DNA of 60,734 bases, the filler included. It is 3 parts of 3 records of this genome, joined end to end, with 100 filler letters (N's around TTAATTAATTAA, not from the genome) between each part and the next. Parts side by side here need not be neighbours in the genome. Positions count along the whole stretch, not along the records: positions 22,860 to 46,394 come from SRR20825019_3139; 2 more parts are not named here. One strand, 5' to 3'. Positions 2,240 through 46,494 of this stretch are shown here, in pieces (the stretch's first letter is position 1; every line of letters begins with the position of its first letter). The notes beneath the pieces are model-generated. The model had not been told where the DNA came from. It worked only from the letters and a program-made list of their open reading frames with translations, and made no database searches. A program made the translations under genes and the position numbers.

Positions 2240-3000
2240 CACTCAGTAGTTCCGCGGCTCCGCTGAACCCCCGACGAAACCGAAAGAAAGGAACTTTGAC
2301 CGGCGCGGGCTGAACGCCGGGGGTGACCGTAGCTCCGAACAAAAGCCGTGCCGGGTGAGCCGGCGGGCCGGCGGACCGGACACTCCTCACCTCATGAGAG
2401 AGAGTGCGGACTCCGACCGGCCAGCCTTGGCAGGCTTTGACGAGGCTGGGGTGGTTGACTTCAACAGCCACCGGGTGGCTGAGATCGCTAGGGATTCGCG
2501 ATATCCGAGGAGTTGCCCACAACACACAACATTTGAGTGGACGAAAAAAAAAAGTCGCTTTGACTTCAGGACCCAAGCGGGGCGATCATTGACCGCGGCG
2601 GGCCGACCGGGACGACTTTTAAGTTTTGAGTTTTGAAAGTCAGGGCCCCGGCGCCCCGTCGCCACCGCGCACCGGCAACGGCGGCGCCGGCCGCGGGGGC
2701 GCCGGCGTCCCGGCCGCCGGGTCCGTCCGGGGTCCGTCCGGGACGGACGCGCCGCCCGCCGCCCGGGTGCGACAGGTCAGTTCCAAGCAGTTCTTCAGCC
2801 GACCGGCCCCGGGCCGGGCGTCCGGCCCGGCCCGGACTTAACGCCGCGCCCGCCTCCCAGCCCACTGCCGGTGGGCATGTTCGCACCTATGCATTGCCGG
2901 CGGCACAAGGGCCGGGGCCCTCTCAACACCGACGCCGCGTTTGGTGACCGATAGCACCAAGGCAGATGCGCCTGGATGTCCGGCCACCAGGATTCAGGTG
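2240..3000. promoter_or_regulatory. GC-rich island in the divergent NMNAT/LZTFL1 promoter region
   Basis: Low-complexity CCGG/GGCC-rich DNA between head-to-head start codons; only spurious Arg/Pro/Gly/Ala ORFs. Promoter role inferred from position. Confidence 0.55.
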
Positions 3001-3070
3001 GGCCAGCGACTGAATTCCATGACAAATATATGTAAGAGTTTTCGTCAATCGAGCTTGTCGCTATTTTGTC

Positions 3071-7778: not shown

Positions 7779-8159
7779 GCCTTCTTGAATACTAGTTCAC
7801 GTTACTTCTTGAGTCTTCACCTTATTTATCAAGTTGCTACTCTTATTTATGTTCGGACAAAGCGAAGCTAGCAAAAGTCGTTAGAGAGTTGTCGGCAGGA
7901 GGCTCATAGACTCAACTCCTCGTGACGGAAGGACATTCAGGAACCCACGAGTTGTGAGTCGCGTTCGCAAAAGCGGGTTATCTTAGGACCGGATTTTGTT
8001 TGGTGCCCGCAAAGGCGTTGAGGAGAGAACTGGGTAATCCGGAAATGGACCTGTGGTGCATTCAGTTCAGGGTTGTTGCATGTTCAAGAGCACCTGACTG
8101 CTGGCACCATGCAAATCCGTCAGCTGAGACAACTTCTTTGCATGGCCGGGGTGCTGAGG

Positions 8160-8890
8160 TGCTCTCTGATGGCCGGGCTGCCTTAGTGTGACGGGCGGTG
8201 GGGGTCAGGTGCGGGTTCCACTGACCGGCCAGACCCGGCCACCACCCCGCCACAGTTAATCTCCCCCCGGCCGGCGGGGCCAGGCCGGGCGCGCCGCCCT
8301 TCGGCCGCCGCGCGGGACGGCGTGCCCCCGTGCGCCGGGCGCCGCCGCGACTCTCTCTGGCTCGCGGCACCGCCGCGACGGTTTTGGCGGGAAGTGTACG
8401 CACTGTGCTTCAAAACTGAGGTCTGGCACCAATTCAAAGTCTTGATCGTCCTCGCAACTGTTAGAGTCCTGGCTAGTGGTTGGCCTCCTTAAAGTGTCAA
8501 AGTCGCGGCATGACTGCAGTACTCACCGCCGCCGGGACGAGCGAGGCGCCACCAGCGGCGGGCGCCGGTCGGCCTCGTCCGCATTCCGTTTCTCGTCCAG
8601 CACTCAGCCACCGGGAGGCGACTCAAGCCGCGCCTGAGCGGCCGGTCGGCGGCTTGGCCGCATCCTGATCAACTGCCGCATCATTTCCAGGGCGGATGCG
8701 CACCTTGGCTCCAGTTATCAGTATGCCAGTGTGACTCGGGGGGGGGGCCGCTGGCCGGAACTGAAGCTGGCGTCTAGCTACCAGACCCCGGAGTCGAGGG
8801 CGTACTAGCTGCTATCGAGCGACCTCCGCTGGTGGGTGAATAACCGCGCCAGGCGGAGGTGGGGCAGAGGCCTACTGCCACCGTGCGGTG
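8160..8890. promoter_or_regulatory. GC-rich island in the divergent POLA2/RCC1-BTB promoter region
   Basis: Same composition, between divergent starts; G10 run at 8738-8747. Confidence 0.55.
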
Positions 8891-12999: not shown

Positions 13000-13640
13000 T
13001 AGCCCGGCCGCGGGCCTGGCTAGGGCTGATGACTATCCCCGGAGTAAACGCGTCCGTCGCCAATAGGTCAGTGTGGCCGCGGCCCGAGCCTGGCCCGGGT
13101 CCGGCCGGGCGGGCGGGCGCGCCGACGCCGGGCTGACTCTACGTACCGGGCCGGGGGCCGGGGGCCGGGGCGCGCCGGACCGCGCCGGACCAGGACGCCG
13201 CACTCAGGCCGGGCCCCGCTCCGCTCACCGGCACCGACTCTCCGGCTAGCCGCGCTGGAGCCGCGCGGGCGCGCGGCGCTACCTGACCGTGAAGGTTACA
13301 GTTACCGGTTAGCCATGTCACCGAGCCAGACCCCCCCGGGCACTCGGAGCCGCGCCCTTGAGCCGGAGCACTGTGTTGGTGAGGACGAAGACTTTGCCCG
13401 GTTGATTGCCGTCCGGTGGAACAGCCCCTACAACTAATTTCACCTAGACTGAGGCTGAATCCGGGCCCCCGGCGGAACCCGGAAGAGCGCCGGCGTCGCC
13501 CCGCCAGCCAGCCCCGGGATACCTCCGGTCGCCGCTTGCGGGCGGGGCGGACTCTCGGGCGCCGCCCCGCACTCAGCCATAGTGCAGGGGCAGACCTGTC
13601 GAATCTCCCTCATGATGAGTCTCCCGAGTCCGGCGGGCCG
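13000..13640. promoter_or_regulatory. GC-rich island upstream of the ankyrin gene
   Basis: CCGG/GGCC-rich tract immediately 5' of ATG 12872 (minus strand). Confidence 0.5.
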
Positions 13641-13763
13641 AGTGATGGCGTACAGAAGGGTCTGGTGATGCATCTCGAATGATGGACTCCCTCTCCTCCA
13701 TTCCCAACAACAATATGCAAACAAACAGGGTTCTCGAACATCTCAAGTGCGGTTGTGAGCACT

Positions 13764-15369: not shown

Positions 15370-16030
15370 GAGGTTGGCGGGCAGCGCTGATGAGCACGCC
15401 GGTAACTGCTCCACCAGCTCACTCCATCTCCGCTTCGCACCACAAGCCAGCCTCGCCGCTGCCCACGCAGACGTGGACCTCAAAGACCTACCCTCACGCG
15501 TCCAGTCCATGTCGGTGCCCAGAAGCGCGGCGGCTCACTGTTTCGGATCCTGCCACGGAGCGGGCGTGCAAGTGAACGCCCCCTCACGAAGTCCGGGCCC
15601 GGCCGCCATTGATCGTTCCGCGACCAACTGAACAACCGCGCGGTCCCGTCAGGGCCGGCCAGCATGTCACGTCCCCGGCCGGGCGCGGCCCCCGTGACCG
15701 GCTCGGGCGGGGCCCGTGCGGGCTCGTCCCGTGCTCGGCTGCTTGCACTGCAGTCCGGTCCACAACGGTGGGTCGGTCGAGAGCGAGCGCTCGTCCGTAG
15801 CACTGACTGGTATCACGGTATGGAGCTGGTGCCCGCGCCTCGCCGCCCGAGCCAGAGCGGGACGGGCACGGCGAGCGCGCCGCCCCGGCCGCCGACCGGG
15901 ACGGGACCGACGGGCCGGTCACCCCGGCCGCCCGCCTGACCCGGTGATGCACATCCGATCGTGCTCAAGGGCGTCGCGGGGTCACGGTCAGGTCAACAAG
16001 GCGCGAGGTGGCCGGGCCGCTCGCTGCAAA
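15370..16030. promoter_or_regulatory. GC-rich island upstream of AP4M1
   Basis: CCGG-rich tract 5' of ATG 15291, with several GTGAC/GTCAC words. Confidence 0.5.
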
Positions 16031-16637
16031 GACTGAAGCCATCCGATCAAGCAGGCTCGCCAACTTGGTCGATCCAACTCCAATGTGATGAAAAAGGTTA
16101 ACCGCGAAAATATCACTACAGTTGATTACAATACTGGAATATCGTAATCCGATTTATACTAAAATTATTGGAATCTTGACTCTACCAGAACTGGGATCAA
16201 TTCACACATCACTGTTTTTGCGCTTGAGGCAGAAGTCGTTTGAGCGGATCGTCGTGCAATCCTGGAGGATCCAGCAGCATCTTACTCCAGTCCGATAGGC
16301 ACCAAAGGCTTCTAGTGAAACCGATTGCACCCCGGCCACCTGACCTGATTCAAGTCGGACGCACCGGGTGATCCATCAGGCAGGCCTCTGAACACACGAG
16401 CAAGACGCCGCGGGACCACAACGAGAAGCATCACCACATCCCGCCCATAAAGATGGCCGTATCAGCCATTCACATGAAGTCTATTCAACAGGTCATCCGT
16501 GCAAGTAGTTCTATTTCCAAAACAAACAAGCCCTGCCGCACCGCGCCGAAGGGCGCCGAGTCGCCGCTGAGGCCGCCGCCGCCCGGGACCCTCGGGTACG
16601 TGACTAGTCCGAGTCTTACGACCAGATTCGCCCTTAT

Positions 16638-21511: not shown

Positions 21512-22759
21512 GATGAATTGTACTTGCAATAGTTTTCCACTTTCCCAAGTCACACACTTTTATTATTATCACCGTAATCTGGAGACAAGGAGTCAGCGTC
21601 AGGTCTATTGCGTCACCCCTCAGCTCACTTGTCGCAGGTTGCGCTTATCGGACTCAAATCGTCGACCAAACTGCTACTCGTCGCTTCGACCGAACTGAAG
21701 CGGGCCACACTTGTCCAGGCGGGCGGCTGTCGTTGTGCAATGCCCGAGAAGAGTTCTCGCTCTACTACTGGATCGGACGTGGAGCCGCACAAGCATGGCA
21801 AGGAGGAGAGACGCGGCCAGGCCTCACTGTTGCGGTGTGGCGGCTGCCAGGCCCGAGGGGCGTGGGCGGCCGGCCGCACCCTGTCTCAGTCTGAGCGGAA
21901 CTGACCTAACCACTGACCCGCCCAGCCGCTCCGAGCGCCCCCGGGCCCGATCCTCCGCTCACGTGACGGCTCGCACTCGAGTCACTCAGTGACTGCCGTG
22001 CGGCACGCAGAGGACTGGTAGGCCCCCGCCCGGCCGGGGGCACCCCACAACCGTGAAGACCGTGAACAAGATACAGTCGCGTAGGGTGGTAACCAAGCAG
22101 GCCAATCGGAAAATCGAGGGTGGGCATCAGTTGTGCATGTTGGACATGGGGAGGGGCCCGGAAGGGCGTGGGGTGACCTGTCAATATACCCGCACGCCCG
22201 ACTGAGCCCCGCTCTTGAGCATCGCATTCCGTTCGGGATTCGGACTGTGTTCAGTTGGCGGCCCGGCGGGGGGCGCCGCGGCCGGGCGGCGCCACCGGGC
22301 CGCCGCACGGCCGACCGGCCTCCCGCCGGCGGCCGGCTCGAGCCACGACTGACCGCCCGGCCGCCCGGCCCCTGAACCCCCACCCGCCGGTCCGGCCGGG
22401 CCGGCCGGGCGGCCGGGCGCGGGCCTGGCAGGGGGCCCGGGCCCGAGTTCCGCCGTCAGGAGTGGCGCCCGGCGCCGGGGGCCGGGCCGGGTGGCGGGCC
22501 GGGCCCCCACCGGGGGGTCCCCGCCGCACGGCCGCCGCGCGCTCGGGCGCCGTACTGCCGGCCCCCATGGCGTACTACCCCGCCCTCCCCCCTCCGCCGT
22601 GCCGCCGCCGCAAGCCGCACGGATCCGTGACTGATGCCCGGCCCGGCCCCGGGGCGGGCGCGGCCCGGCGGCCAGCGGCCGGGCACCCGGGCCACCCCGC
22701 CGGGACCGTGACTGACGCGGCGGCCGGCCGGCGGGCGGGAGGGGGGGGGGGGGGGGGGG

Positions 22760-22859
22760 NNNNNNNNNNNNNNNNNNNNNNNNNNNNNNNNNNNNNNNNN
22801 NNNTTAATTAATTAANNNNNNNNNNNNNNNNNNNNNNNNNNNNNNNNNNNNNNNNNNNN
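22760..22859. other. Artificial contig-joining spacer (N44-TTAATTAATTAA-N44)
   Basis: Exactly 100 bp, with a six-frame stop cassette flanked by Ns; identical to the spacer at 46395-46494. Confidence 0.98.
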
Positions 22860-23341
22860 TGACTTGCTGATCGGCTCGCACGCAACGTAGCTGGTATGCC
22901 GGGCACATAAGCGGCCCGGCCGGCACGAGAGCGTGGCGGCGCCAGTGACCCGCCCGGCCACCTCGATAGCCTGCTCCGCGAGGCCGGGCGGCTGGGCCGG
23001 CCGCCGCTCGGAGTCCCGGGCTCATCATGGCTGATTGCGGCCGGCCGGCTCCGGCTCGGGCTGCCCGCGGGCCGGCCGTGCTGGGCCCGGTCCGGTCGCG
23101 ACCGCTTGGCCGGCTACCGGACTCATCAGTGATCGGTTGCCGGGCCCGGCCGGGCCCTGCCAGGCTGGACCATACCGACCCGGTGTAACGACGATACTGT
23201 ATTCTCTTGCGTTCCATGTGCTGCGCCACCGGCGCGGTTCCTCGCGGTGCAGCCGGGGACACCAGGTCGGGCTGTGTCGCTGGCTGTGAAGGGTGTCGCC
23301 TGTAGCGAAGGAGAAAGCACGACTGTCACGTTACCCAAACC

Positions 23342-25736
23342 ATGCTTGGTCTGAAAGGCGCTTTGGTAATTAAAATACCGCACCTTACGAATCACGTCAT
23401 TTTGTGGCAATTTGCGGTCATGCTCCAGCATGTCTCGGGCGAGCGATATGATATGAAGTGGAAGGATCGCAACTCATCCGCTACCAGGTTGATACTGGAG
23501 ACGCTTCAAAGGCGCATAGAGTTTTCAAAAAATTTGGCCTCCTTCAACTCGCAACAAAGATGCCCCGTTACACGAATTCCGCACGTAGGCGGAGTAGATA
23601 TCGGTATGTCATTTTTTGACGCCATATTCAGCCCACAATTAATCGGCTTCGCCAGACCTGTATACCATGTTCCTCTGCGTTGTTAGTCGCGGTGGATATC
23701 AACAAGTTAGCTCAAGCTATCGCTGGGTTGAAGTCGGAAGGGTGTTGGGAATGGGACCAACATGCACGAATACCAGCTACCTGACAAAAACACACTATGA
23801 AAAATACCTACTCAAATACGAGAATCATATTCGAAGAACTGACGAAGAATATTTCACCAAGGTTACTCTTGTGGAAGATACCATGGCAGACACTCCCATT
23901 GCCGCCGGATGTCGCGGGAATCGGCTCACTACCGCAGAGTATCAATATCTCCCTGTGCTGGCCTCTGCTCCGAACTACATGCTAGAGCTCCGGAACCTGG
24001 TGCTATTTCGATGGGCCTTGGATGTGACCCGTGCCATGACAGCCACCGAGGCATTAGCTGGGATTCCTGCTGATTTTCAAGGTGATGCAACTTGTATATT
24101 CCGCTTTTTGACGCTTTTCGGGTTTATCAACAGCGGCATTGTGGACATTTCTGAGGTTGTTGCTTCTCCGGAATTCAAGGATGTCCGTGACTCCGTTGCG
24201 AAGTCAGGGCAGATTGTTGTTATTGGCGCAGGCGCCGCTGGCATTGCTTGTGCTCGACATTTGTCCCAGTTTGGAATGAAGGTAGTTGTTGTGGAGGGAA
24301 AGAATCGACTTGGCGGGAGAGTGTGGTCTACAGATCACTTTTCCAAGACTGTTGATGTTGGTGCATCCATCATTACTGGTTTGAAGGGAAATCCCATGGA
24401 TGCGCTACGCCAACAGGCTGGGCTTGCTATCCATCGACTAAGCCAGGTATGCCCGTTATTCTTCAGTCACGGAGAGAAAGTGAGTTTGGACCTTGATGAC
24501 AAAGCATCTGCAACCTACAACAAGGCGCTGGACGAAGCGATGCGAGGTCGCCTCTTGTCCATTAAGCGCGCGGCGCACCCGCTGGCCCGTCTTGACGGTG
24601 GCGCTCAAGGGGAGAGGATAGAAGACCTGTCGTTGAATTCGAATGATACGTCGCTAGGAGAGAGTCTGCGCTCAAAGCTCTTGGCCATCTCCAAGAAGCT
24701 ACCACCAGAAGAGCAGTGCTTGATCGAGTGGCACACAGCAAATCTTGAATACGGTTGTGCTGCTTCATTAAGCAAAGTGTCTAGTATGGAATGGGACCAA
24801 GACGATGTTCACGACTTTGATGGGGACCATGCCATATTCTCTGGTGGTCAGAGCCAACTTTTGGACACTCTGGCTCACGGTCTAGATGTGTCTATTGATC
24901 GCGTGGTAGAGTGTGTCCGACATAATGATGCATCTGTGTCCGTTATATGCAAGGATGGCACCATTGTAGAAGGGTCATGCTGTGTATCAACTTTGCCCAT
25001 TGGTGTCCTTCAAGCCGATTCCGTGCGGTTCGAACCTCCCCTTCCGGAGTGGAAGCGGAACTGCATATCTCGAATCGGCGCTGGATTGCTTAACAAGGTC
25101 ATTTTGGAGTTTCCATCATGTTTTTGGCCACAGGACGTAGACATGTTTGGACGTGTCCCCAGCAAAGATGGGCTACGGGACCTGAAATCGGCAGAATGGA
25201 TCCATGATGAGTCTAGAGGTCGTTATTTTATGTTCTGGGATTTGAGAAGGCCCACTGGAGCGTGTGTATTGACGTCCCTCGTTTGCGGAAAGGCGGCCAT
25301 CGATATGGAAGGAGAAAGCGACGAAGAAGTTGTGGCTCAAGTACTCGGAGCCTTACGGTCTATGTTTGGAGACCAGGTCCCTGAGCCCATCAAGTATGTG
25401 GTGACCAGATGGGGGGCGGATACCATGGCGAGGTGTGCTTATTCATACCTCCCCATAGGAAGTTGCGGGAGGATGTATGAATCAATGTCCCAACCCGTCG
25501 GTAACATTTACTTTGCTGGAGAGGCCACGCACCGCGAACATGCCACTACCGTTGCTGGTGCTATACTCAGTGGCTGGCGTGAAGCCGGAAGGATTCTTTC
25601 CAAGAGTATTCAAATTGAAGCTCCTAAGAAAGCCGGTTCTAGGCCTAGCCAGGGGTGTTTTACCATCCTCTACGATGATGATCTTCACAATCAACTCAAG
25701 AGTACCAAGAAGAGGAAGAAGCGTAAGAGGTTTTGA
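23342..25736 (+). CDS. LSD1/KDM1-family FAD-dependent histone lysine demethylase with an N-terminal ARID domain
   Basis: ARID: IPHVGGVDI|DLYTMFLCVVSRGGYQQV..RWVEVGRVLG..LTKTHYEKYLLKYE (intron 23604-23655). SWIRM: LRNLVLFRW..IFRFLTLFGFINSG. Amine oxidase: VVIGAGAAG, RLGGRV, DVGASIITGLKGNP, WHTANLEYG, WDQDD, GLLNKV, YSY, FAGEAT. C-terminal basic NLS-like KKRKKRKRF. Start codon uncertain (23342 or 23453). Confidence 0.88.
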
Positions 25737-25755
25737 AGGTTTTAATGAGGCAGTT

Positions 25756-27498
25756 TCAAATTACAAAGGAGTCCTTTACACTCGGACGAGAGTTAGAGTG
25801 GCACGATGCACAAGTCACCTGCTCCTCGTAGCGTTTGCACACTTGTGCCCAGCCATTCTCTACGGGACCACCCTGAGAGCATCTCTCAGAATGACTGCCG
25901 AGGCTCAGTAGGGGTATGACAATCCCACTGTCGGCCAAAGCGGCCTTGGTCTCCTCGGTAAGATGGTGGACATACCACATGACCGCCTCGTGACAGTGCC
26001 CATCTCTCTGTATGTTGTGCAACACGGAGGAGTCTTCATGGGATTCAACCAGACGATTCAGTTCACTCCAACCCTCATATAAATCATGGAGGTCTTTCCT
26101 CAATCGACGATTATCATTGGTGAGCTGTCAATGGACGATCAGGACACCTAACACCATTGCAAGAACGAAGACTATCACTTACCTGGTAGATGTCATCTAG
26201 TGATGACTCCCGAGCGATGTAGAGGAGGGCCTGCAGCTGCTGGATTTCTGGGGCACTCCACTCGTCACATCGCTTGGTCATCGCTGCCCCTTCCTGGATC
26301 CACTTGTTAAGAGTACGTGACATGCTTTCAAAGTCCGCTCCCTTGTAATGTTCCCGTGGAATCTTTGTGCGAGCCCTTTGCCATTCCATTTGTGTCTCAG
26401 TCTCGTCTGTCAGAACACCTCGCAATGAATTCTCGTCCTTCTGTATTCAAGAATGAGCTACTTCATTTCATTACTGCATGCGCTGCAACAAACCTTAGCA
26501 GTTTTCTTGGGATACCCGTCATCCGTGCATCCAATGCGGAATGCCGCCCCTCCCTTCTTGCACAGGGCTGGTGGAATGTCATCGAACAGACTCTCATCCA
26601 CTGCACCGGGATTTGTGCCATCTTTGAAAACCTGGAGTCCATTGAAAGGCTGATACATACGAACAATCTTGCCATCTTTTGGGGTGGACCACACGTGATG
26701 AGGCCCGAATGCCCAATGGTCAAGAATCATTTCTTTCTCCGAACTCCATTCCACACCGATCTTTTCTCTACCAATGTAAAAGAGTTGATCGGTCCAGTTT
26801 TTCTGGATGGGATACATCGATTCCTTCGTCAAATCCGCGCCTTCGTGAACCTGTGTTGACGTGTCAGCCTATCAATTACCATTACATGGTGATCCAGCTC
26901 CACCTCAGTGCAGACACATTGGTGAACACCTGCGGCATACCAAGGAAACTTGTTAACAACCCAAAAATTCAAGTCCTGGCAGGGAGTTAGATTTTAGCTC
27001 ATATCCTATGACAAGACATACCTGGTGGATGACAGTCGTCTGGACCTTGCCTACCACAGTTTTGAGAGTCAGGTCCTCGCGCAGTGCAAAGTTCTTCTCC
27101 ATGTCGTAAATCTGTTTGCCGTATTGCTCACGGTAGCACATGGCACCAACAGAGTCATTTCCCGGAAATGCTTGGAAGCAAAAAGGGTCCGTCTTCTTGC
27201 CGATGAGAATCTCGTGATAGTCATCGGCAGTCCACCTCGTACCCCAGACTGGTTTCACGAGTGTGCTAGGATCCACGCCCGTGGCGTTGGACAGCACTTG
27301 GCAACTAGTGATGGTGATTTTGTTGTTATCATCGCCAGTGGGAATGCCTCCAATTCCTTCGCACGGTCCGCAGGGAGGGCTGTAGTCCGTGTGGTCGCAC
27401 CTTCTCTTGCGGTCCCATTGGTGCGGGTTTCCATCCGCTTGGGTATACACGTGGGCAGCCAGCAAAAGGAAAACAAGGCCTACTCCAAAGTATTTCAT
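25756..27498 (-). CDS. Uncharacterised secreted Cys-rich protein, possibly with an ependymin-like domain and a His-rich C-terminal domain ending in CxxCH; multi-exon
   Basis: Signal peptide MKYFGVGLVFLLLAAHVYTQA. Clean GT-AG splicing joins the ORFs at 26953-27585, 26458-26832, 26114-26425 and 25756-26103. Motifs CGPCEGIGG, DHWAFGPHHVW, FDDIPPALC, RDGHCHEAVMWYVHHL, TCASCH. Confidence 0.75.
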
Positions 27499-27879: not shown

Positions 27880-28280
27880 GAACTTCCGGACCGGTACCCG
27901 CCACCAGCCCGCGGGGACTCTCAGGCTAGCGGATGATTACAGTCACGTGCCCGAAAAATGAATCCTCCGACCGAAAAAATCCCCGGAATTTGTCTTGATG
28001 AGTATAAATCGCAATATATCGGATATAAGTATTCCAGCACTTGTAACGGCTGCGACGCTGCCTGGCGGCCGGCATGGCGCCATGCTGGAGTGGTAGATGG
28101 ACGCCCGAGTGGCCGGCGTCGTGCCCGGCCGGGCGGGGGGGGGATCGGTGGGCTGGCCCGCCCCGCGCGGCGGCCGGCGGCCCGGCTGCTTCGCTGCGGG
28201 ATAATAACGCACGCCGTGGCCCGATGATGACCGGGTAGTTTCCGAACTTAGGGTTGCCTGCGCCACGCCCGGTTCCAGCG
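27880..28280. promoter_or_regulatory. GC-rich island between the divergent secreted-protein and LRR genes
   Basis: CCGG-rich tract with a G9 run at 28135-28143, between head-to-head genes. Confidence 0.5.
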
Positions 28281-28343
28281 CTCACTCGCTGTTCAAATAA
28301 AGAGATTTCCATGTGAAAGTTACTAAGTTCTCTTGAGTGAGAA

Positions 28344-29697: not shown

Positions 29698-32600
29698 TTA
29701 TGATGAAAAAAGTTCCTCAAGCTCATGTGTGGTCATGACCATCCGCTCATCCGGATATGACCGAATAACTATGTCCTCCCAATGACTGTATGTGTCAATA
29801 AAGTGCTTCTCGAGGATGGGCCACACCTCGGGCAAAAGGTTCATTTCATCGTCAAGGTGTTTCTGCATTTTCTTGAAGCAGATGCCGAGATTCCTCTCCA
29901 CACTTGCAAGTTCGGACTTCAGCAAACGGCGTAGATTCGCTTTAGAATATGAGTGATGAAACTGAATCTCATTCGAAGGTATAGTTTCTAGAGCCCGGTC
30001 AACACCCTCAAAGAAATCCTGCCGAAAAAAATCAGAAACCAGTAAGCAGAAAAAGCGGACAGGACTCACAAAAGACTGGCCAAAGAATCGCTTCAAAAGC
30101 TGCAATACATATGTCTTCACATGGACTTCATATCCTTCCTCTGCGTCTTTCACATACTCGGCGAGCTTTGCTTCATCCAATTCTGCCAAGTTATAGTGGA
30201 AATGATGATAATTTTCTGCAAAACATATATCAGTATATGGGCGCGTGTATCTGGAACTCTCGCATACGAAGGTTAATGAGGCACCCATGTTTGACAAAGT
30301 TATCCTTAATTCTTTTCAAGTAGCTGAACATCGCGCTGACAAAACGGTGGTATGTGTGATCGGCGACACTGCGGAGTTTCTTTCCTGTCAGCGCCAGTTC
30401 CATCCTTGCCGCAAGTTCCGGGAACTTTTGAAAGCATATCAACACGCCGCAGCGTTGGGTCGGCACTTTCTGTTCATTGATTCTCTGGATCTGTTCATCA
30501 ACAAACGCAGTAAAATTCTTGGTGAGATTTTGACGGTTAGACAAAAGAAGACTCATGACGTATTTCCCCTAAAGACAAGGGTCACTCAAAGCACATGGAC
30601 GATGCGCTGAAATCGAATGTACCTGTCCCTTATGGTCGTTCATTAGTTGCTCTGTGTCTGCGAGCATACCAAGAGTAAAGAATGGGTCGATCTTGACTGA
30701 TGCATCAATAAGCTTTTCAAATTCGCCTTGGAATTGCCCAAACAACTTATTCAATATGGCATGCATGGTGACACGCTGTCCTCCATCGTCACTATCTTCA
30801 TCTGCAGACACACGATAGTAAGCACAGACCAATACGCAATTTGCGTCCTCCTTGCCTTCCATGTTGAATATCGTCATACAGAACTCTCGAACTCCTAAAA
30901 TCGACGATATTACCTCCCGCATTATGTACAAATACGCCTTGTCGATTTTCTTGTCACTAAAACCGGATGATTGTTGACCTAGAGCCATTTGGATCTGTGC
31001 AGGATCCAGCCGCGCACTGCGTGTGGCAGCCGCTCTGCAAGGAGATAAGTTCAGGTGATGCCATCAGGGCACCAAGCAATAGCCATACCTTCCCTCCCGA
31101 CCACTACGAGCGCTGGCTGCGTCTGTTGGTTGCAGCTGTGAGTTCATCATACGAGCCATTTTCAAAGCAGCAAATGCTGCTCCAGAGTTCTCAAGTCCTT
31201 TCTCATCTGTCATGTCGAAAGTGGATACCATTGAGAAATTGTCACTGATGCACTCCCTCATCATTTGAATGAAGCGAATGCGCGCTTGCTTAAACTTCAG
31301 GCGAATACTTAGAACATACGTTTCGACAAGGGTATCAAATCTCTTCACGTCCACCTCTTTGATCGCAATTAAGACATCCTTGAATGGCTTCGCCTTTGCC
31401 ATCATATCATCTTGCCGAGGAAGCACCGGATCACCCATACTTTCATCTTCAATATCCCCTGGTTGAAAAATTGTGTTCTTCGTGAACGCAATAACTCTCA
31501 TGGCGAAATTCGGGCCATGTCGACACAGCTCTTCGTATCTGGACTTCACCACTCCCATCTGCCGCATCTCAGAATCCATTTCTTCAAATCTCCCTATGGA
31601 CTTTTGCAGAGCCTCCACTGACGCCAATGCGGCATCCCGCCCGTCAACTGTTGATAGATCCGCCTGTTGCAGATTAGTGACATCTTCCTTACTAATAAAT
31701 TCTCCTGTCTGGACTCCCAATTAATGCACTCGAAACACAATTCCCGATTCTCTTGCTTACCACCAAACCATTGAGCTCCTTAAGAAGCAGCACATAATTT
31801 TTCTGCCTTGTCTCCAGCTTATCATTCTTGACCTGGATTCTTTGTAAATCCTTTTGAAGTTGCTATTCCGACAAGGTCTATTAGTCTTGTAGTTCAACTA
31901 AAATAAGCGAAACTCACCTGAAACTTGCCCGTGAATTGGTCAAGCTGACTTGACAGGTCATTCAGAGTTCCAGGCAGATCCTTCAGTTGTTTCACTATCC
32001 TTCCCATGGTATCTGCCGACTGAAGGGTTGTATGAACATTTGCTCGTTCTAAAGCTCTCATGTTATCCTCCAACTTGTCCTGAAATTCATGCGCATTGGA
32101 TTCGCCAAGCTTGAGCCGTGTCATTAGATCGTCCATTTCCTTCTCCTCAGATTCAGACAAGAGGCTCAGTGCAAGACCACCGTCGCCAGCAGGCGTGCCA
32201 GGGGTCATAGGTATCAATTCTCCTCTCGGAGTTATAGTCTCCAAGCCATGGGGCCCACCATCGGGGGTTTTGGGCTGCATGAGTACACCTTCATACTGTC
32301 CCTGAAAGTTATATGTATCCGCTGGTTCGAAAAAAATCGTCAGCTACTTCGATAGCTATGGAAAGTGGCAACATACAAGCAAAAGATAGCTCCGCCAGAT
32401 CTATTTTTTGGGTCTTAGGCATGAAGCCGTACTTAATTCGACATATCTGCACGCTAGTCAGCCCAGTCGCGGTACACCCTGCAGTCACTAGTATACCGCG
32501 AGCAGGAGCCATATCAGTTCCATTTTGTCCACAGAGTTATCTGCAGCCCACTTTTGTTGTCCCTTGTCCTCAAACACCAGCGCAAAGAAGTCCTCTTGAT

Positions 32601-33099: not shown

Positions 33100-34290
33100 C
33101 TTGTACGCGAGCCGCGTCGCCTGGATACTTGCACAGCTGCGAGTGGCGCTTTCTTCTTCAACTGCGTCGTCTCCGATTGTGGGCCCGCTTTGGGCCCGGC
33201 CTCGCGGGGGCAGTGCCGGATCAGTCCCTCCTTCGTCGTGGCCGGTGTTTGGGGCTCTCCGGCAGGCCGCCACTCACGGAGCAGTGACCGGCTGTGTACC
33301 AGCCACACGGCATCATTAGGGGGGCGCGCCGGCCGGGCTCAGCTGTCAACACTGACACTGACAGGGTCCGGCCGCCGCCCGCGCCACTCAGCGGCCGCGC
33401 AGGCGCCCGCTGCGGTCGGTGCGTCGTCCTCCGTGCCGGTGCAACGCCGGCGACTGCAGCCCGGCCGGCCCAGGCTAAGCCAGCCATGCCTCCGAGTCCC
33501 GGGGGTCAGGGTCGTACCGGCGGGTACCCGTCGGGCCCTGGCTGCAGGGGACCGGCTGCCCGGCGGGTCTGGCCGCCTGCAGGCCGGCAGCCGGGGCCGG
33601 GGCCTTGAGGACACTGTGTGACGTCACTGGCGGTGAGGGCCCTCACGACATCCTATCACCCCATTTGGGGGTCTTTTTGTACTGGGTATTTGGTGGCGTC
33701 CCGTCCCGGGTGACCACTGCCGGGCCCGGCGGCCGGCTCCCGATGATCGACAAGCCGGGCCGCGGCCGGCGGGCCCGCCCCGGGCCGTGCCGCCCCCCCG
33801 GGTCGTGGCGGGACATCCGAATGCGCGTGCCCGGCGGTGAGTGCCAATCATGAGTGGAGCCCGGCCCAGTGGGCACCACCGGCACTCCTCAACGCGGCCT
33901 CGCTGCGCCGCAGTACGGCGCTGCTCAGCAGCGGCAGAGCCGGTCAGAGTCTTGCCCCGCGGCCCTTCGCGCTCAGCGCGTTTCGCGCGTGGGCGCGCGC
34001 TCCTCCACGCCGGCCCCGGGAGGCGAGCCGCGGCGCCGGCGCGCGGCCGGCGCTCCGCGCGCCCTGCCAGTGGCCGTCAGTCCTTCCCTGCGCCGGCTGG
34101 GTGAGCAGGCTCCAGGGGAGCCGGACCGGGCACGGCGCTGAGTGCCCCGGCCGGGTCCGGCCCGGCCCCAGCCGCCGCGCAGGACGACGCACCTATGTCC
34201 GGAATCGCCGCGGGTGGTACGCCGGCGGCTAGGGCACACCTCACCAGTAACGTGAGCGGCAAGCCTCCTGTTCCGAAGTCACCAGGAGCG
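33100..34290. promoter_or_regulatory. GC-rich island between the divergent Sec3 and LamG genes
   Basis: About 1.2 kb of CCGG/GGCC-rich DNA; palindrome GTGACGTCAC at 33618-33627. Confidence 0.55.
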
Positions 34291-34338
34291 CGTATCAATA
34301 TCGCCGTTGAGATTAAATGGCCTTGTTTGGTAGCCGAC

Positions 34339-39529: not shown

Positions 39530-40370
39530 ATGGAAGCCGACCCGCCCAACGTGGCGGTGGGACTGGGGGGGGGGGGTGGTTGTGGGAAGTGGAACCGGGC
39601 GGCATGAAGAGAACAGTTGAAGAGCTGCAATCACATCGTCGTTGGGAGTTTTTGGACGCGCGTATTTGCCCACCCCGAACAAGACTAATCATGGCCCGCA
39701 CCGTGGGACCACTCACGCGGCGAAGGAGTGTGGTGGCCGGGCCTGCAGCGTGCCGGTGGGGGCGGCGGCGAGCCTTCGTGTGGGGAGGCCCGAGCCGGCA
39801 CCGGGCCCCCGGCCGACGTGCCGCTCGATTGCGCCTACGGCCCGGCTGCCGGGCGGTGCTGCGGTCGTGCGGGCCGGCGGCGCGCCGCACCCGGCTCCTG
39901 CGAATCAATCCGGTTGACTGCCGACTCATGATTCATTTTAGTCCCGAATGGGAAACAGTGTAAACAGTTCTGGTGTGAAACAACCGCCATTGTTTATGTA
40001 ATATCACATGAGTACATACGGCGGTGCTTGTACTCCAAACCTTGATTCCGATTGGGCCAGCCGGGCCCGGTGGCTCAGTGGGCCCCCAGACCGGCATAGC
40101 CTCGCTCTTTGATCCAACGAGGCGATACACTCAACTGAGTGACGACCGACTCAACGAGGCCGCTGACCCGCGATGTGGCAGTCAGCGCCGCCGGCGCCAG
40201 CTGGGAGTGACCGACCCGCCGAGGCCGCGCCGGGGTACGGTACCCCCCGACCCGGTGTCGATGATGGCTGGAGTGTGCACAGGTCCGCTTGAGATGGGGA
40301 AATGCCTCGGACTGCTGACGGCCGCTGACCTCACAGAGGATGACTGCGAAACTCGAGTCCCGACATGGTC
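39530..40370. promoter_or_regulatory. GC-rich island between the divergent TrpRS and hom genes
   Basis: Two GC-rich lobes separated by a short AT-richer core (~39930-40020); G12 run at 39565-39576. Confidence 0.55.
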
Positions 40371-45904: not shown

Positions 45905-46394
45905 GAAACTGCCACTACAGGATTTTTTGGTAGTGTACTTTACTTGTAAACAGTCGGTGTGTGGCCCGTCGGAATGCCCCTTGGCCTGGTTGTCGCAATG
46001 ATACGGCGTGCAGCACGGTATGGCATGGGAACCGACGACAGCCGGGCCACATCCGTCCGGTTGCCAGTGATTCAACACTGAAAAGGACACCGACGCTGCT
46101 CAGAACGACGGTGGGCCGCCCCCACCTTGCCCCCGCCGGGTTGTGTCGAGTGGCCGTAACCGGCTCCACGGGCGTGCCACCCGCCTGCGACCGCTTTGGG
46201 TAGTAGCCAAGTCATGCACGACTCTGTTGCTGTCCAAGGCCCGGCCACCGCACTCGACGCCGGCCCGCTCAAGTTGGCCCGCTCGTGGGCCTCCGGCAGC
46301 CTGACTGGACGTGCTGTCACAGGCCGGCGTCCATCGCCAGTGCCGGGGGAGACGGCGGCGGGGCGCCGGGCGCCGGGGGGGGGGGGGGGGGGGG

Positions 46395-46494
46395 NNNNNN
46401 NNNNNNNNNNNNNNNNNNNNNNNNNNNNNNNNNNNNNNTTAATTAATTAANNNNNNNNNNNNNNNNNNNNNNNNNNNNNNNNNNNNNNNNNNNN
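46395..46494. other. Artificial contig-joining spacer; boundary between eukaryotic and bacterial sequence
   Basis: N44-TTAATTAATTAA-N44; gene structure and base composition change abruptly across it. Confidence 0.98.

Follow-up and report, generated by a model that had tools for sequence, protein, structure and literature searches.

Here, we identify a gene that encodes an ARID domain fused to a KDM1 (LSD)-type histone demethylase in a 60,734-base stretch of DNA (the window). The gene occupies positions 23342-25736 on the plus strand and is a genuine nuclear gene, with two exons, of a marine protist; from N- to C-terminus, its product consists of an ARID, a SWIRM domain, a flavin adenine dinucleotide (FAD) amine oxidase domain and a basic C-terminal tail. 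We demonstrate that the ARID is complete in the spliced protein and that the catalytic part belongs to a tower-less member of the KDM1 (LSD) family. The ARID-KDM1 architecture is rare and apparently undescribed, and it is not unique to this genome. We suggest that the protein probably functions as a demethylase of mono- and dimethylated lysine 4 of histone H3 (H3K4me1/2), with its ARID supplying a DNA contact in cis. Two N44-TTAATTAATTAA-N44 linkers (22760-22859 and 46395-46494) divide the window into three contigs, so that features cannot be read across a linker; the middle contig (22860-46394) carries the gene, which begins ~480 nt from the left end of this contig. The parts of the gene on which the argument rests are as follows.

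23342-25736, plus strand: ARID-KDM1 gene, two exons and one intron.
23342-23603, plus strand: exon 1, 262 nt; 57 N-terminal residues of uncertain status, then the first third of the ARID.
23604-23655, plus strand: intron, 52 nt, GTATGT...CAG, phase 1, within the ARID.
23656-25736, plus strand: exon 2, 2081 nt including the TGA stop codon.
23513-23831 (23513-23603 joined to 23656-23831), plus strand: ARID, residues 58-146, split by the intron.
23919-24200, plus strand: SWIRM, exon-2 residues ~88-181, from a Pfam match below the cut-off, colinearity with LSD2, a profile of related N-termini and a structural model.
24237-25598, plus strand: FAD amine oxidase, exon-2 residues 194-647, with LSD1 and LSD2 as best solved matches.
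24225-24242, plus strand: FAD dinucleotide-binding motif GxGxxG (GAGAAG), residues 278-283 of 780.
25095-25097, plus strand: catalytic-site lysine K568 in LLNKV, opposite the lysine of GIIEK in LSD2.
24537-24707, plus strand: insert at the site of the LSD1 tower, 57 residues (exon-2 residues 294-350), partly helical, with residues 307-320 disordered in the model.
25707-25730, plus strand: C-terminal basic cluster KKRKKRKR.

Several observations support the idea that the ARID and the demethylase form one protein. First, the coding sequence runs from an ATG at 23342, with an in-frame TAG upstream at 23303-05, to a TGA at 25734-36, and after splicing it comprises 2343 nt, i.e., 780 codons and the stop codon, with 0 internal stops. 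An earlier reading made from the letters of the window alone (the sequence-only reading) had proposed this gene model with a 52-nt intron at 23604-23655; we confirm its coordinates and content, and the frame stays open once the exons are joined. Second, Pfam detects the ARID in the 692-residue product of exon 2 (1.2e-10, 42.1 bits against a cut-off of 24.1), where residues 1-55 correspond to positions 33-89 of the 89-position profile, while the exon 1 product alone has no Pfam match at E<=10. A significant ARID match had been put forward in the sequence-only reading as the check on its domain call, and the exon-2 part alone provides it. Third, a profile of 94 positions, which we built from 49 ARID domains among the phmmer matches described below, scores 97.5 bits against the spliced protein (positions 5-93, residues 58-146), 64.2 bits against exon 2 alone (positions 36-93) and 14.2 bits against exon 1 alone (positions 5-32). 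Because the seeds of this profile were chosen by their likeness to the exon-2 half, the 33-bit gain tests, independently of that choice, that the first third of the ARID, which exon 2 lacks, is supplied by exon 1. Thus, the exon join and the domain profiles together bear out the ARID-SWIRM-amine oxidase fusion that had been read from the sequence.

Public sequence data bear on the splice itself. Three public runs hold part of the stretch, and their contigs were compared with the window over 23150-26100. Run X1 contributes seven contigs, all at least 99% alike to the window, that cover 29 of 30 bins. One of these, 250 nt long, joins 23602/3 to 23655/6, in that way skipping exactly 52 nt with GT..AG ends; it has a depth of 3.2, and its shorter side measures 85 nt. 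The intron-less join that the sequence-only reading had proposed to look for is therefore present in public sequence, in one contig of a run whose kind (RNA or DNA) is unrecorded, and spliced mRNA is the simplest reading of it. A contig of X3, a marine metagenome run, stays colinear through the intron. A further contig of X1 matches the window colinearly over 23150-23387 and extends 66 nt further left; if X1 is RNA, the transcript thus starts upstream of the ARID-coding exon, within or beyond a GC-rich island that precedes the gene.

It is barely credible that the fusion is an artefact of the gene model, in which case the ARID piece would either be a pseudo-exon or belong to a gene other than that of the demethylase, and the fusion protein would not be made. 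Exon 1 has no Pfam match by itself, the kind of X1 is not on record, the X1 contigs leave 23388-23517 uncovered and the gene begins only 480 nt from a contig end. However, the ARID is split mid-domain so that neither half is sensible alone, the exact GT..AG join restores both the frame and the domain, and the same domain order is found in a single uninterrupted open reading frame (ORF) in a metagenome contig (P0147/L002, see below).

The catalytic part of the protein is nearer to LSD enzymes than to polyamine or monoamine oxidases. In Pfam, the exon-2 product matches Amino_oxidase at 2e-77 (261.8 bits, cut-off 19.8, residues 194-647) and NAD_binding_8 at 1.5e-11 (44.8 bits, cut-off 21.9, residues 188-243). 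Among solved structures, LSD2/KDM1B ranks first (1.6e-83), with a single colinear alignment of residues 94-646 to 247-773 of 4gu0, and LSD1 follows at 3.8e-83 in two stretches; spermine oxidase (2.3e-39) and maize polyamine oxidase (6.5e-35) lie ~44 orders of magnitude below the LSD matches. An AlphaFold2 model of the exon-2 product, based on an alignment of 43 rows, has a mean predicted local distance difference test score (pLDDT) of 83.6 and a predicted template modelling score of 0.83, with SWIRM and oxidase mostly above 90; scores below 50 are confined to the truncated ARID (residues 1-70) and to residues 307-320 and 656-679. When this model was compared with known structures using Foldseek, ranks 1-49 were all LSD1 or LSD2, at 29-31% identity, and maize polyamine oxidase came at rank 50. 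LSD2 superposes at 3.2-4.2 Å over ~583 columns, and LSD1 at 8.6-22 Å because of its tower. SWIRM lies directly N-terminal to the oxidase, as in the KDM1/LSD family; in the model this region is all helical with a pLDDT of 84-98, and the second half of a profile made from the N-termini of four ARID-SWIRM proteins (profile A1) matches the isolated LSD1 SWIRM chains 2l3d, 2com, 5it3 and 6e1f at 4-6e-4.

The motifs expected of an active enzyme are in place. In the numbering of the 780-residue protein, GxGxxG begins at 278, WDQDD at 467, LLNKV at 565 and YSY at 683, and the intact FAD and catalytic motifs (GxGxxG, lysine, YSY) of the sequence-only reading are therefore all found. WDQDD..GDH aligns with WDQDD..GSH of LSD1, and we take K568 to be the equivalent of LSD1 K661; we likewise assume that the aligned residues have the roles of the active-site lysine and of an acidic block in H3-tail binding. 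The conserved blocks on either side of the tower are 57 residues apart in the protein, compared to 135 in human LSD1 (389-523 of 2xaf_A), and LSD2 stays colinear. Thus, the protein lacks an LSD1-type tower insertion, in agreement with the short insert that had been noticed in its place. The basic cluster near the C-terminus is, from its composition, likely a nuclear localisation signal. It is highly improbable that the substrate is of another kind (for example, a polyamine, a non-histone protein or a methyl-lysine other than H3K4me1/2) and that the ARID tethers such an activity to DNA. The amine oxidase fold is common to polyamine oxidases, as the spermine oxidase match and the maize enzyme at rank 50 illustrate, and identity to LSD1 and LSD2 is low; however, SWIRM is present, the LSD matches are better by the margin given above and the WDQDD block of LSD1 is conserved.

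Compared to characterised KDM1 enzymes, the protein combines familiar catalytic features with an unfamiliar N-terminus. Human LSD2/KDM1B (4gu0, 4fwe, 4hsu) is likewise a tower-less SWIRM-FAD amine oxidase protein and gives the best superposition, at 31% identity. However, LSD2 works with the cofactor NPAC, as the titles of its PDB entries state, whereas the protein described here carries an ARID instead and is ~19 residues longer at the tower site. LSD2 also has N-terminal zinc fingers that include a zf-CW; no zinc-finger family was matched at E<=10 by Pfam in either exon product. LSD1/KDM1A with CoREST shares the catalytic fold, the WDQDD...GxH block and the lysine, but obtains its DNA contact in trans from CoREST; with 57 rather than 135 residues at the tower site, CoREST-type docking is not expected here. 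KDM1 homologues with an HMG box, of which the named examples are fungal and among which we count S. pombe Lsd1/Lsd2, have a DNA-binding module in the same chain as the enzyme, except that the HMG box is C-terminal whereas the ARID is N-terminal, and the named ones form a separate, well-supported clade. The plant proteins LDL1/LDL2/FLD are tower-less SWIRM-amine oxidases of 32-35% identity and among the best named matches; they are without an ARID and form a separate clade.

The KDM5/JARID1 proteins (JmjN-ARID-PHD-JmjC) also unite an ARID and an H3K4 demethylase in one chain. However, their catalytic domain is an unrelated iron- and 2-oxoglutarate-dependent JmjC domain, and their ARID is inserted inside the catalytic module; Pfam finds neither JmjN nor JmjC in the protein described here. 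Nor is its ARID specifically KDM5-like, as far as sequence comparison indicates. Among solved structures, profile A1 matches Dead ringer (1c20, 4.2e-11) and ARID3A, ARID1B (1.1e-10), and also ARID5B and ARID2, compared to 3.4e-8 for KDM5C and 1e-7 for KDM5A; in bits, Dead ringer/ARID3A reach 46 and ARID1B 45, and the KDM5 types 35-37. In a tree of ARIDs, the domain is not placed with KDM5 ARIDs. The proposal of the sequence-only reading that the enzyme had converged on the KDM5 layout therefore holds as an analogy only: in KDM5 the ARID lies between JmjN and JmjC, here it is N-terminal, and its nearest ARIDs are not those of KDM5.

The rarity of ARID-KDM1 was assessed in several searches. A search with the exon-2 product found 246 homologues, of which the best 120 were inspected. 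None of these 120 carries PF01388 (ARID) in precomputed Pfam lists, and none matches our own ARID profile at E<0.3. Accessory families do occur among them: HMG-type domains (PF00505 and/or PF09011, which we take to be the HMG-box families) in 37, PF08236 (presumably the SRI domain) in 8, zf-CW (PF07496) in P0035 only and DEK_C in one. As a side observation, homologues with other additions to KDM1 within these best 120 are found among P0002-P0005, P0075, P0099, P0104, P0105, P0094 and P0035; those with PF08236 include the amoebozoans Cavostelium and Planoprotostelium, and DEK_C also occurs in a mostly chlorophyte Atlas cluster. There is no ARID-bearing KDM1 cluster of 50 or more members in Atlas.

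An exhaustive phmmer search of 1.84 billion representatives with a 185-residue piece covering the ARID half and SWIRM (E<=1e-3, all matches scanned with Pfam) returned 66 matches. ARID without SWIRM or oxidase was found in 57, of which 3 (P0151, P0158 and P0167) are KDM5-type proteins that share only the ARID with our protein; 6 have SWIRM and/or oxidase without ARID, and 3 combine the two. P0147 (894 residues) has an ARID (37.2 bits) and an Amino_oxidase domain (254.9 bits), and the fragments P0130 (371 residues; ARID 49.9 bits, SWIRM 47.6 bits) and P0139 (247 residues; ARID 57.8 bits, SWIRM 40.3 bits) have both domains above the Pfam cut-offs. All three were found solely in metagenomes: JGI/IMG, ENA and one MetaClust member that bears a scaffold name from Tara Oceans. 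Two stretches of P0147 align colinearly to our protein, one that extends from the ARID across SWIRM into the FAD site (31% over 302 residues, 4e-36) and one that covers the latter half of the oxidase (41% over 339 residues, 2e-67); P0147 corresponds exactly to the uninterrupted ORF 556-3444 of L002, a contig of 66% GC. Thus, the ARID-SWIRM(-amine oxidase) arrangement recurs among a small number of uncultured eukaryotes. The P0130 cluster also has a longer member, P0190 (444 residues), in which an acidic low-complexity stretch follows SWIRM. In a further protein, P0006, the called N-terminus aligns to the last third of the ARID only; this truncation may reflect an uncalled upstream exon and may be a gene-calling artefact, as metagenome gene callers ignore introns.

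Each search has its own reach. A phmmer query with a divergent half-domain detects only the most similar ARIDs, so that an ARID-KDM1 with a different ARID would be missed. A word-based homologue search with the N-terminal 185 residues gave 1037 candidates, 0 of them at E<=0.1. The search with A1 among longer proteins returned 4 ARID-only proteins and missed P0147 itself, which makes it weak on rarity. A search for metagenome loci used narrow patterns (WDQDD[VE]H and EQ[CR][LV][IL]EWH) taken from two full-length proteins (A2) and thus samples close kin only; eight KDM1 loci were recovered, several with <1 kb of DNA upstream, and of these only L002 encodes an ARID, all frames considered. In literature titles and abstracts, we found no description of an ARID-KDM1 fusion, with subscription papers, e.g., protist chromatin surveys, lying outside this scope; the main text of a preprint on chromatin evolution (10.1101/2021.11.30.470311) mentions none of KDM1, LSD, ARID, SWIRM or amine oxidase. 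Altogether, the absence of ARIDs from the 120 best homologues, of a corresponding Atlas cluster and of a published description in that scope agrees with the view of the sequence-only reading that the architecture had not been characterised.

The data are compatible with a single origin of the fusion. In a 40-row tree of the amine oxidase domain (C20 mixture), our protein sits on a long branch whose position is not resolved, and P0147 pairs with P0006 (SH-aLRT support 90). A 22-row tree (LG+G4) omits 18 of the 40 rows, namely second or third members of the well-supported plant, fungal and SRI clades and L001; in this tree, our protein and P0006 form a pair with a support of 98, which is flagged as two long branches coming together, and P0147 stands next to them. 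Constraining these three proteins to one clade in the 22-row tree gave a log-likelihood 3.38 better than the free search (p-value of the approximately unbiased test 0.58). The ARID tree, built from 53 rows and 94 columns, shows little resolution.

How might the ARID serve the enzyme? According to a bioRxiv preprint (10.1101/2022.01.13.476263), the KDM5C ARID is required for efficient demethylation of nucleosomes but not of a peptide, while it makes no contribution to nucleosome binding affinity, and SANT2 of CoREST touches nucleosomal DNA, freeing the H3 tail for LSD1. A need for a DNA-contacting module on nucleosomes, as described there for LSD1, is the logic that we propose to be common to LSD1 and our protein. 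By analogy, the most economical reading would be that the ARID gives the tower-less enzyme its own DNA contact. In this model, the enzyme would oxidise mono- or dimethyl-lysine on the H3 tail in an FAD-dependent manner, with H3K4me1/2 as the most likely substrate if it behaves like LSD1 and LSD2 of the same family. The ARID would bind linker DNA or the DNA of the nucleosome, with a sequence preference that is slight or modest, and would in this way keep the catalytic lobe on chromatin, give it its orientation and release the H3 tail. The ARID would then do in cis what SANT2 of CoREST does in trans for LSD1 and what HMG boxes presumably do elsewhere.

We consider it unlikely that the ARID is not used for DNA at all, being instead a protein-interaction or autoregulatory module or a decaying remnant, with recruitment by partners as for LSD1 and LSD2. 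The lack of an effect of the KDM5C ARID on nucleosome affinity, as reported in the same preprint, would fit this possibility, and so would two relatives: in P0147, the ARID spans only positions 21-89 of the profile, its first fifth being lost together with a Thr/Ser-rich stretch that our protein and P0130 keep, and P0006 as called has only the last third. However, the ARID in the window is full length at 97.5 bits, those of P0130 and P0139 score 50-58 bits in Pfam, and the truncation of P0006 may stem from gene calling.

A second alternative concerns the sequence preference of the ARID. The window contains ten GC-rich islands, as follows, one of which lies directly upstream of the gene.

22860-23251, no strand: GC-rich island at the 5' end of the middle contig, 72% GC, directly upstream of the ARID-KDM1 gene.
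2551-3001, 8101-8751, 13001-13651, 15501-16051, 21751-22759, 22860-23251, 28001-28301, 33201-34301, 39651-40351 and 46101-46394: the ten GC-rich islands, from GC content.

The islands have 65-77% GC and a ratio of observed to expected CpG of ~0.85-1.2, compared to 48% GC and 0.79 elsewhere. They are rich in GGCCGGGC/CCGGCC-type words, recur every 5-6 kb, often lie between diverging ORFs, in several cases at ORF 5' ends, and are present at both contig breaks; they look promoter-associated and probably cause assembly gaps. The ARID could read a motif of these islands, e.g., GGCCGGGC-type words, and bring the demethylase to promoters without a partner transcription factor. One island immediately precedes this gene and others coincide with the 5' ends of ORFs nearby, a distribution that fits such self-targeting, which the sequence-only reading had put forward, as does the frequency of CCGCCC (2.9 per kb inside islands vs 0.32 per kb outside), and the ARIDs of KDM5A/B are reported, in the preprint cited above (10.1101/2022.01.13.476263), to bind GC-rich DNA. 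However, base composition accounts for the enrichment of GC-rich hexamers. The ARID is, moreover, nearer to those of Dead ringer/ARID3A, which are AT-rich binders, and of ARID1B than to KDM5, it does not fall with KDM5 ARIDs in the tree, and P0147, from a contig of 66% GC, has a divergent ARID. We therefore hold sequence-directed targeting to be quite unlikely. In its fullest form, an autonomous, DNA-sequence-guided H3K4 demethylase whose ARID reads GGCCGGGC-rich islands at gene 5' ends with no CoREST-like partner, the idea is very unlikely; if it were true, promoter H3K4 methylation would be set directly by DNA sequence, in a protist counterpart of CpG-island targeting by KDM2A or GC-box binding by KDM5A.

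We thus favour a DNA contact made in cis with little or modest sequence preference, and the following points weigh against this reading or the gene structure and kinship on which it builds. The Pfam match to SWIRM in our protein (1.6e-4, 22.3 bits, residues 88-158 of the exon-2 product) is below the cut-off of 28.6. The truncated ARID in the exon-2 model has a pLDDT of 33-45 and gives no structural confirmation of the window's own ARID and, judging from the reduced ARID of P0147, it may be that not all members of the group bind DNA. The splice join stands in a single contig of low depth (3.2) from X1, of unrecorded kind, and an intron-less DNA allele would yield the same contig; the reading frame across the exons is supported even then. 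The amine oxidase placements involve long branches, the clade of our protein, P0147 and P0006 was named only after the first tree had been seen, and the four ARIDs linked to KDM1 or SWIRM do not group in the free ARID tree, where grouping them costs 2.45 log-likelihood units (p-value of the approximately unbiased test 0.41).

KDM1 enzymes work poorly on nucleosomes alone, and different lineages have found different solutions, with LSD1 relying on its tower and CoREST and LSD2 on zinc fingers and NPAC. An ARID fused in cis would be a further solution, next to the HMG boxes and the SRI- or DEK_C-type modules carried by the homologues found here. Two unrelated families of H3K4 demethylases, KDM1 and KDM5, are thus each found coupled to an ARID. 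The protein also offers a compact, single-chain system in which control of flavin-dependent histone demethylation by DNA contact can be tested. So far, the group comes only from this protist assembly and from uncultured marine or environmental eukaryotes, an example of chromatin-protein diversity not covered by the reference proteomes that were searched.

The 5' end of the gene has further features.

23453-23455, plus strand: alternative start codon, Met38, giving a 743-residue product with the ARID intact.
23216-23305, plus strand: upstream ORF of 29 codons in the frame of the gene, closed by the TAG 36 nt before the ATG and inside the stretch covered by X1.
23150-23341, plus strand: upstream stretch colinear with an X1 contig; 5' untranslated region if X1 is RNA.

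Met1, Met27 and Met38 are all N-terminal of the ARID. In X2, a related marine metagenome contig of depth 2, an extra T (a 1-nt insertion) follows 23448, just before the Met38 codon. This insertion would break the frame from Met1 but not that from Met38, a weak hint that the first 37 codons are perhaps untranslated; alternatively, the extra T may be a sequencing error in a GATAT repeat.

On the minus strand, a convergent neighbour at 25756-26446 has its 3' end within ~20 nt of the demethylase stop codon. It consists of two adjoining ORFs (25756-26127 and 26114-26446), neither of which has a Pfam match and which are seemingly split by a GTAAGT...CAG intron of ~60 nt. Further along the middle contig, where neighbouring ORFs match eukaryotic Sec3 and leucine-rich repeats, a homologue of the exocyst subunit Sec3 lies at 29698-32343 on the minus strand (C-terminal Sec3 domain, Sec3_C-term, 1.2e-18); it is spread over several ORFs, which again indicates short introns. 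The third contig (46495-60734) has ~60% GC throughout, with long ORFs densely packed on both strands, and looks prokaryotic.

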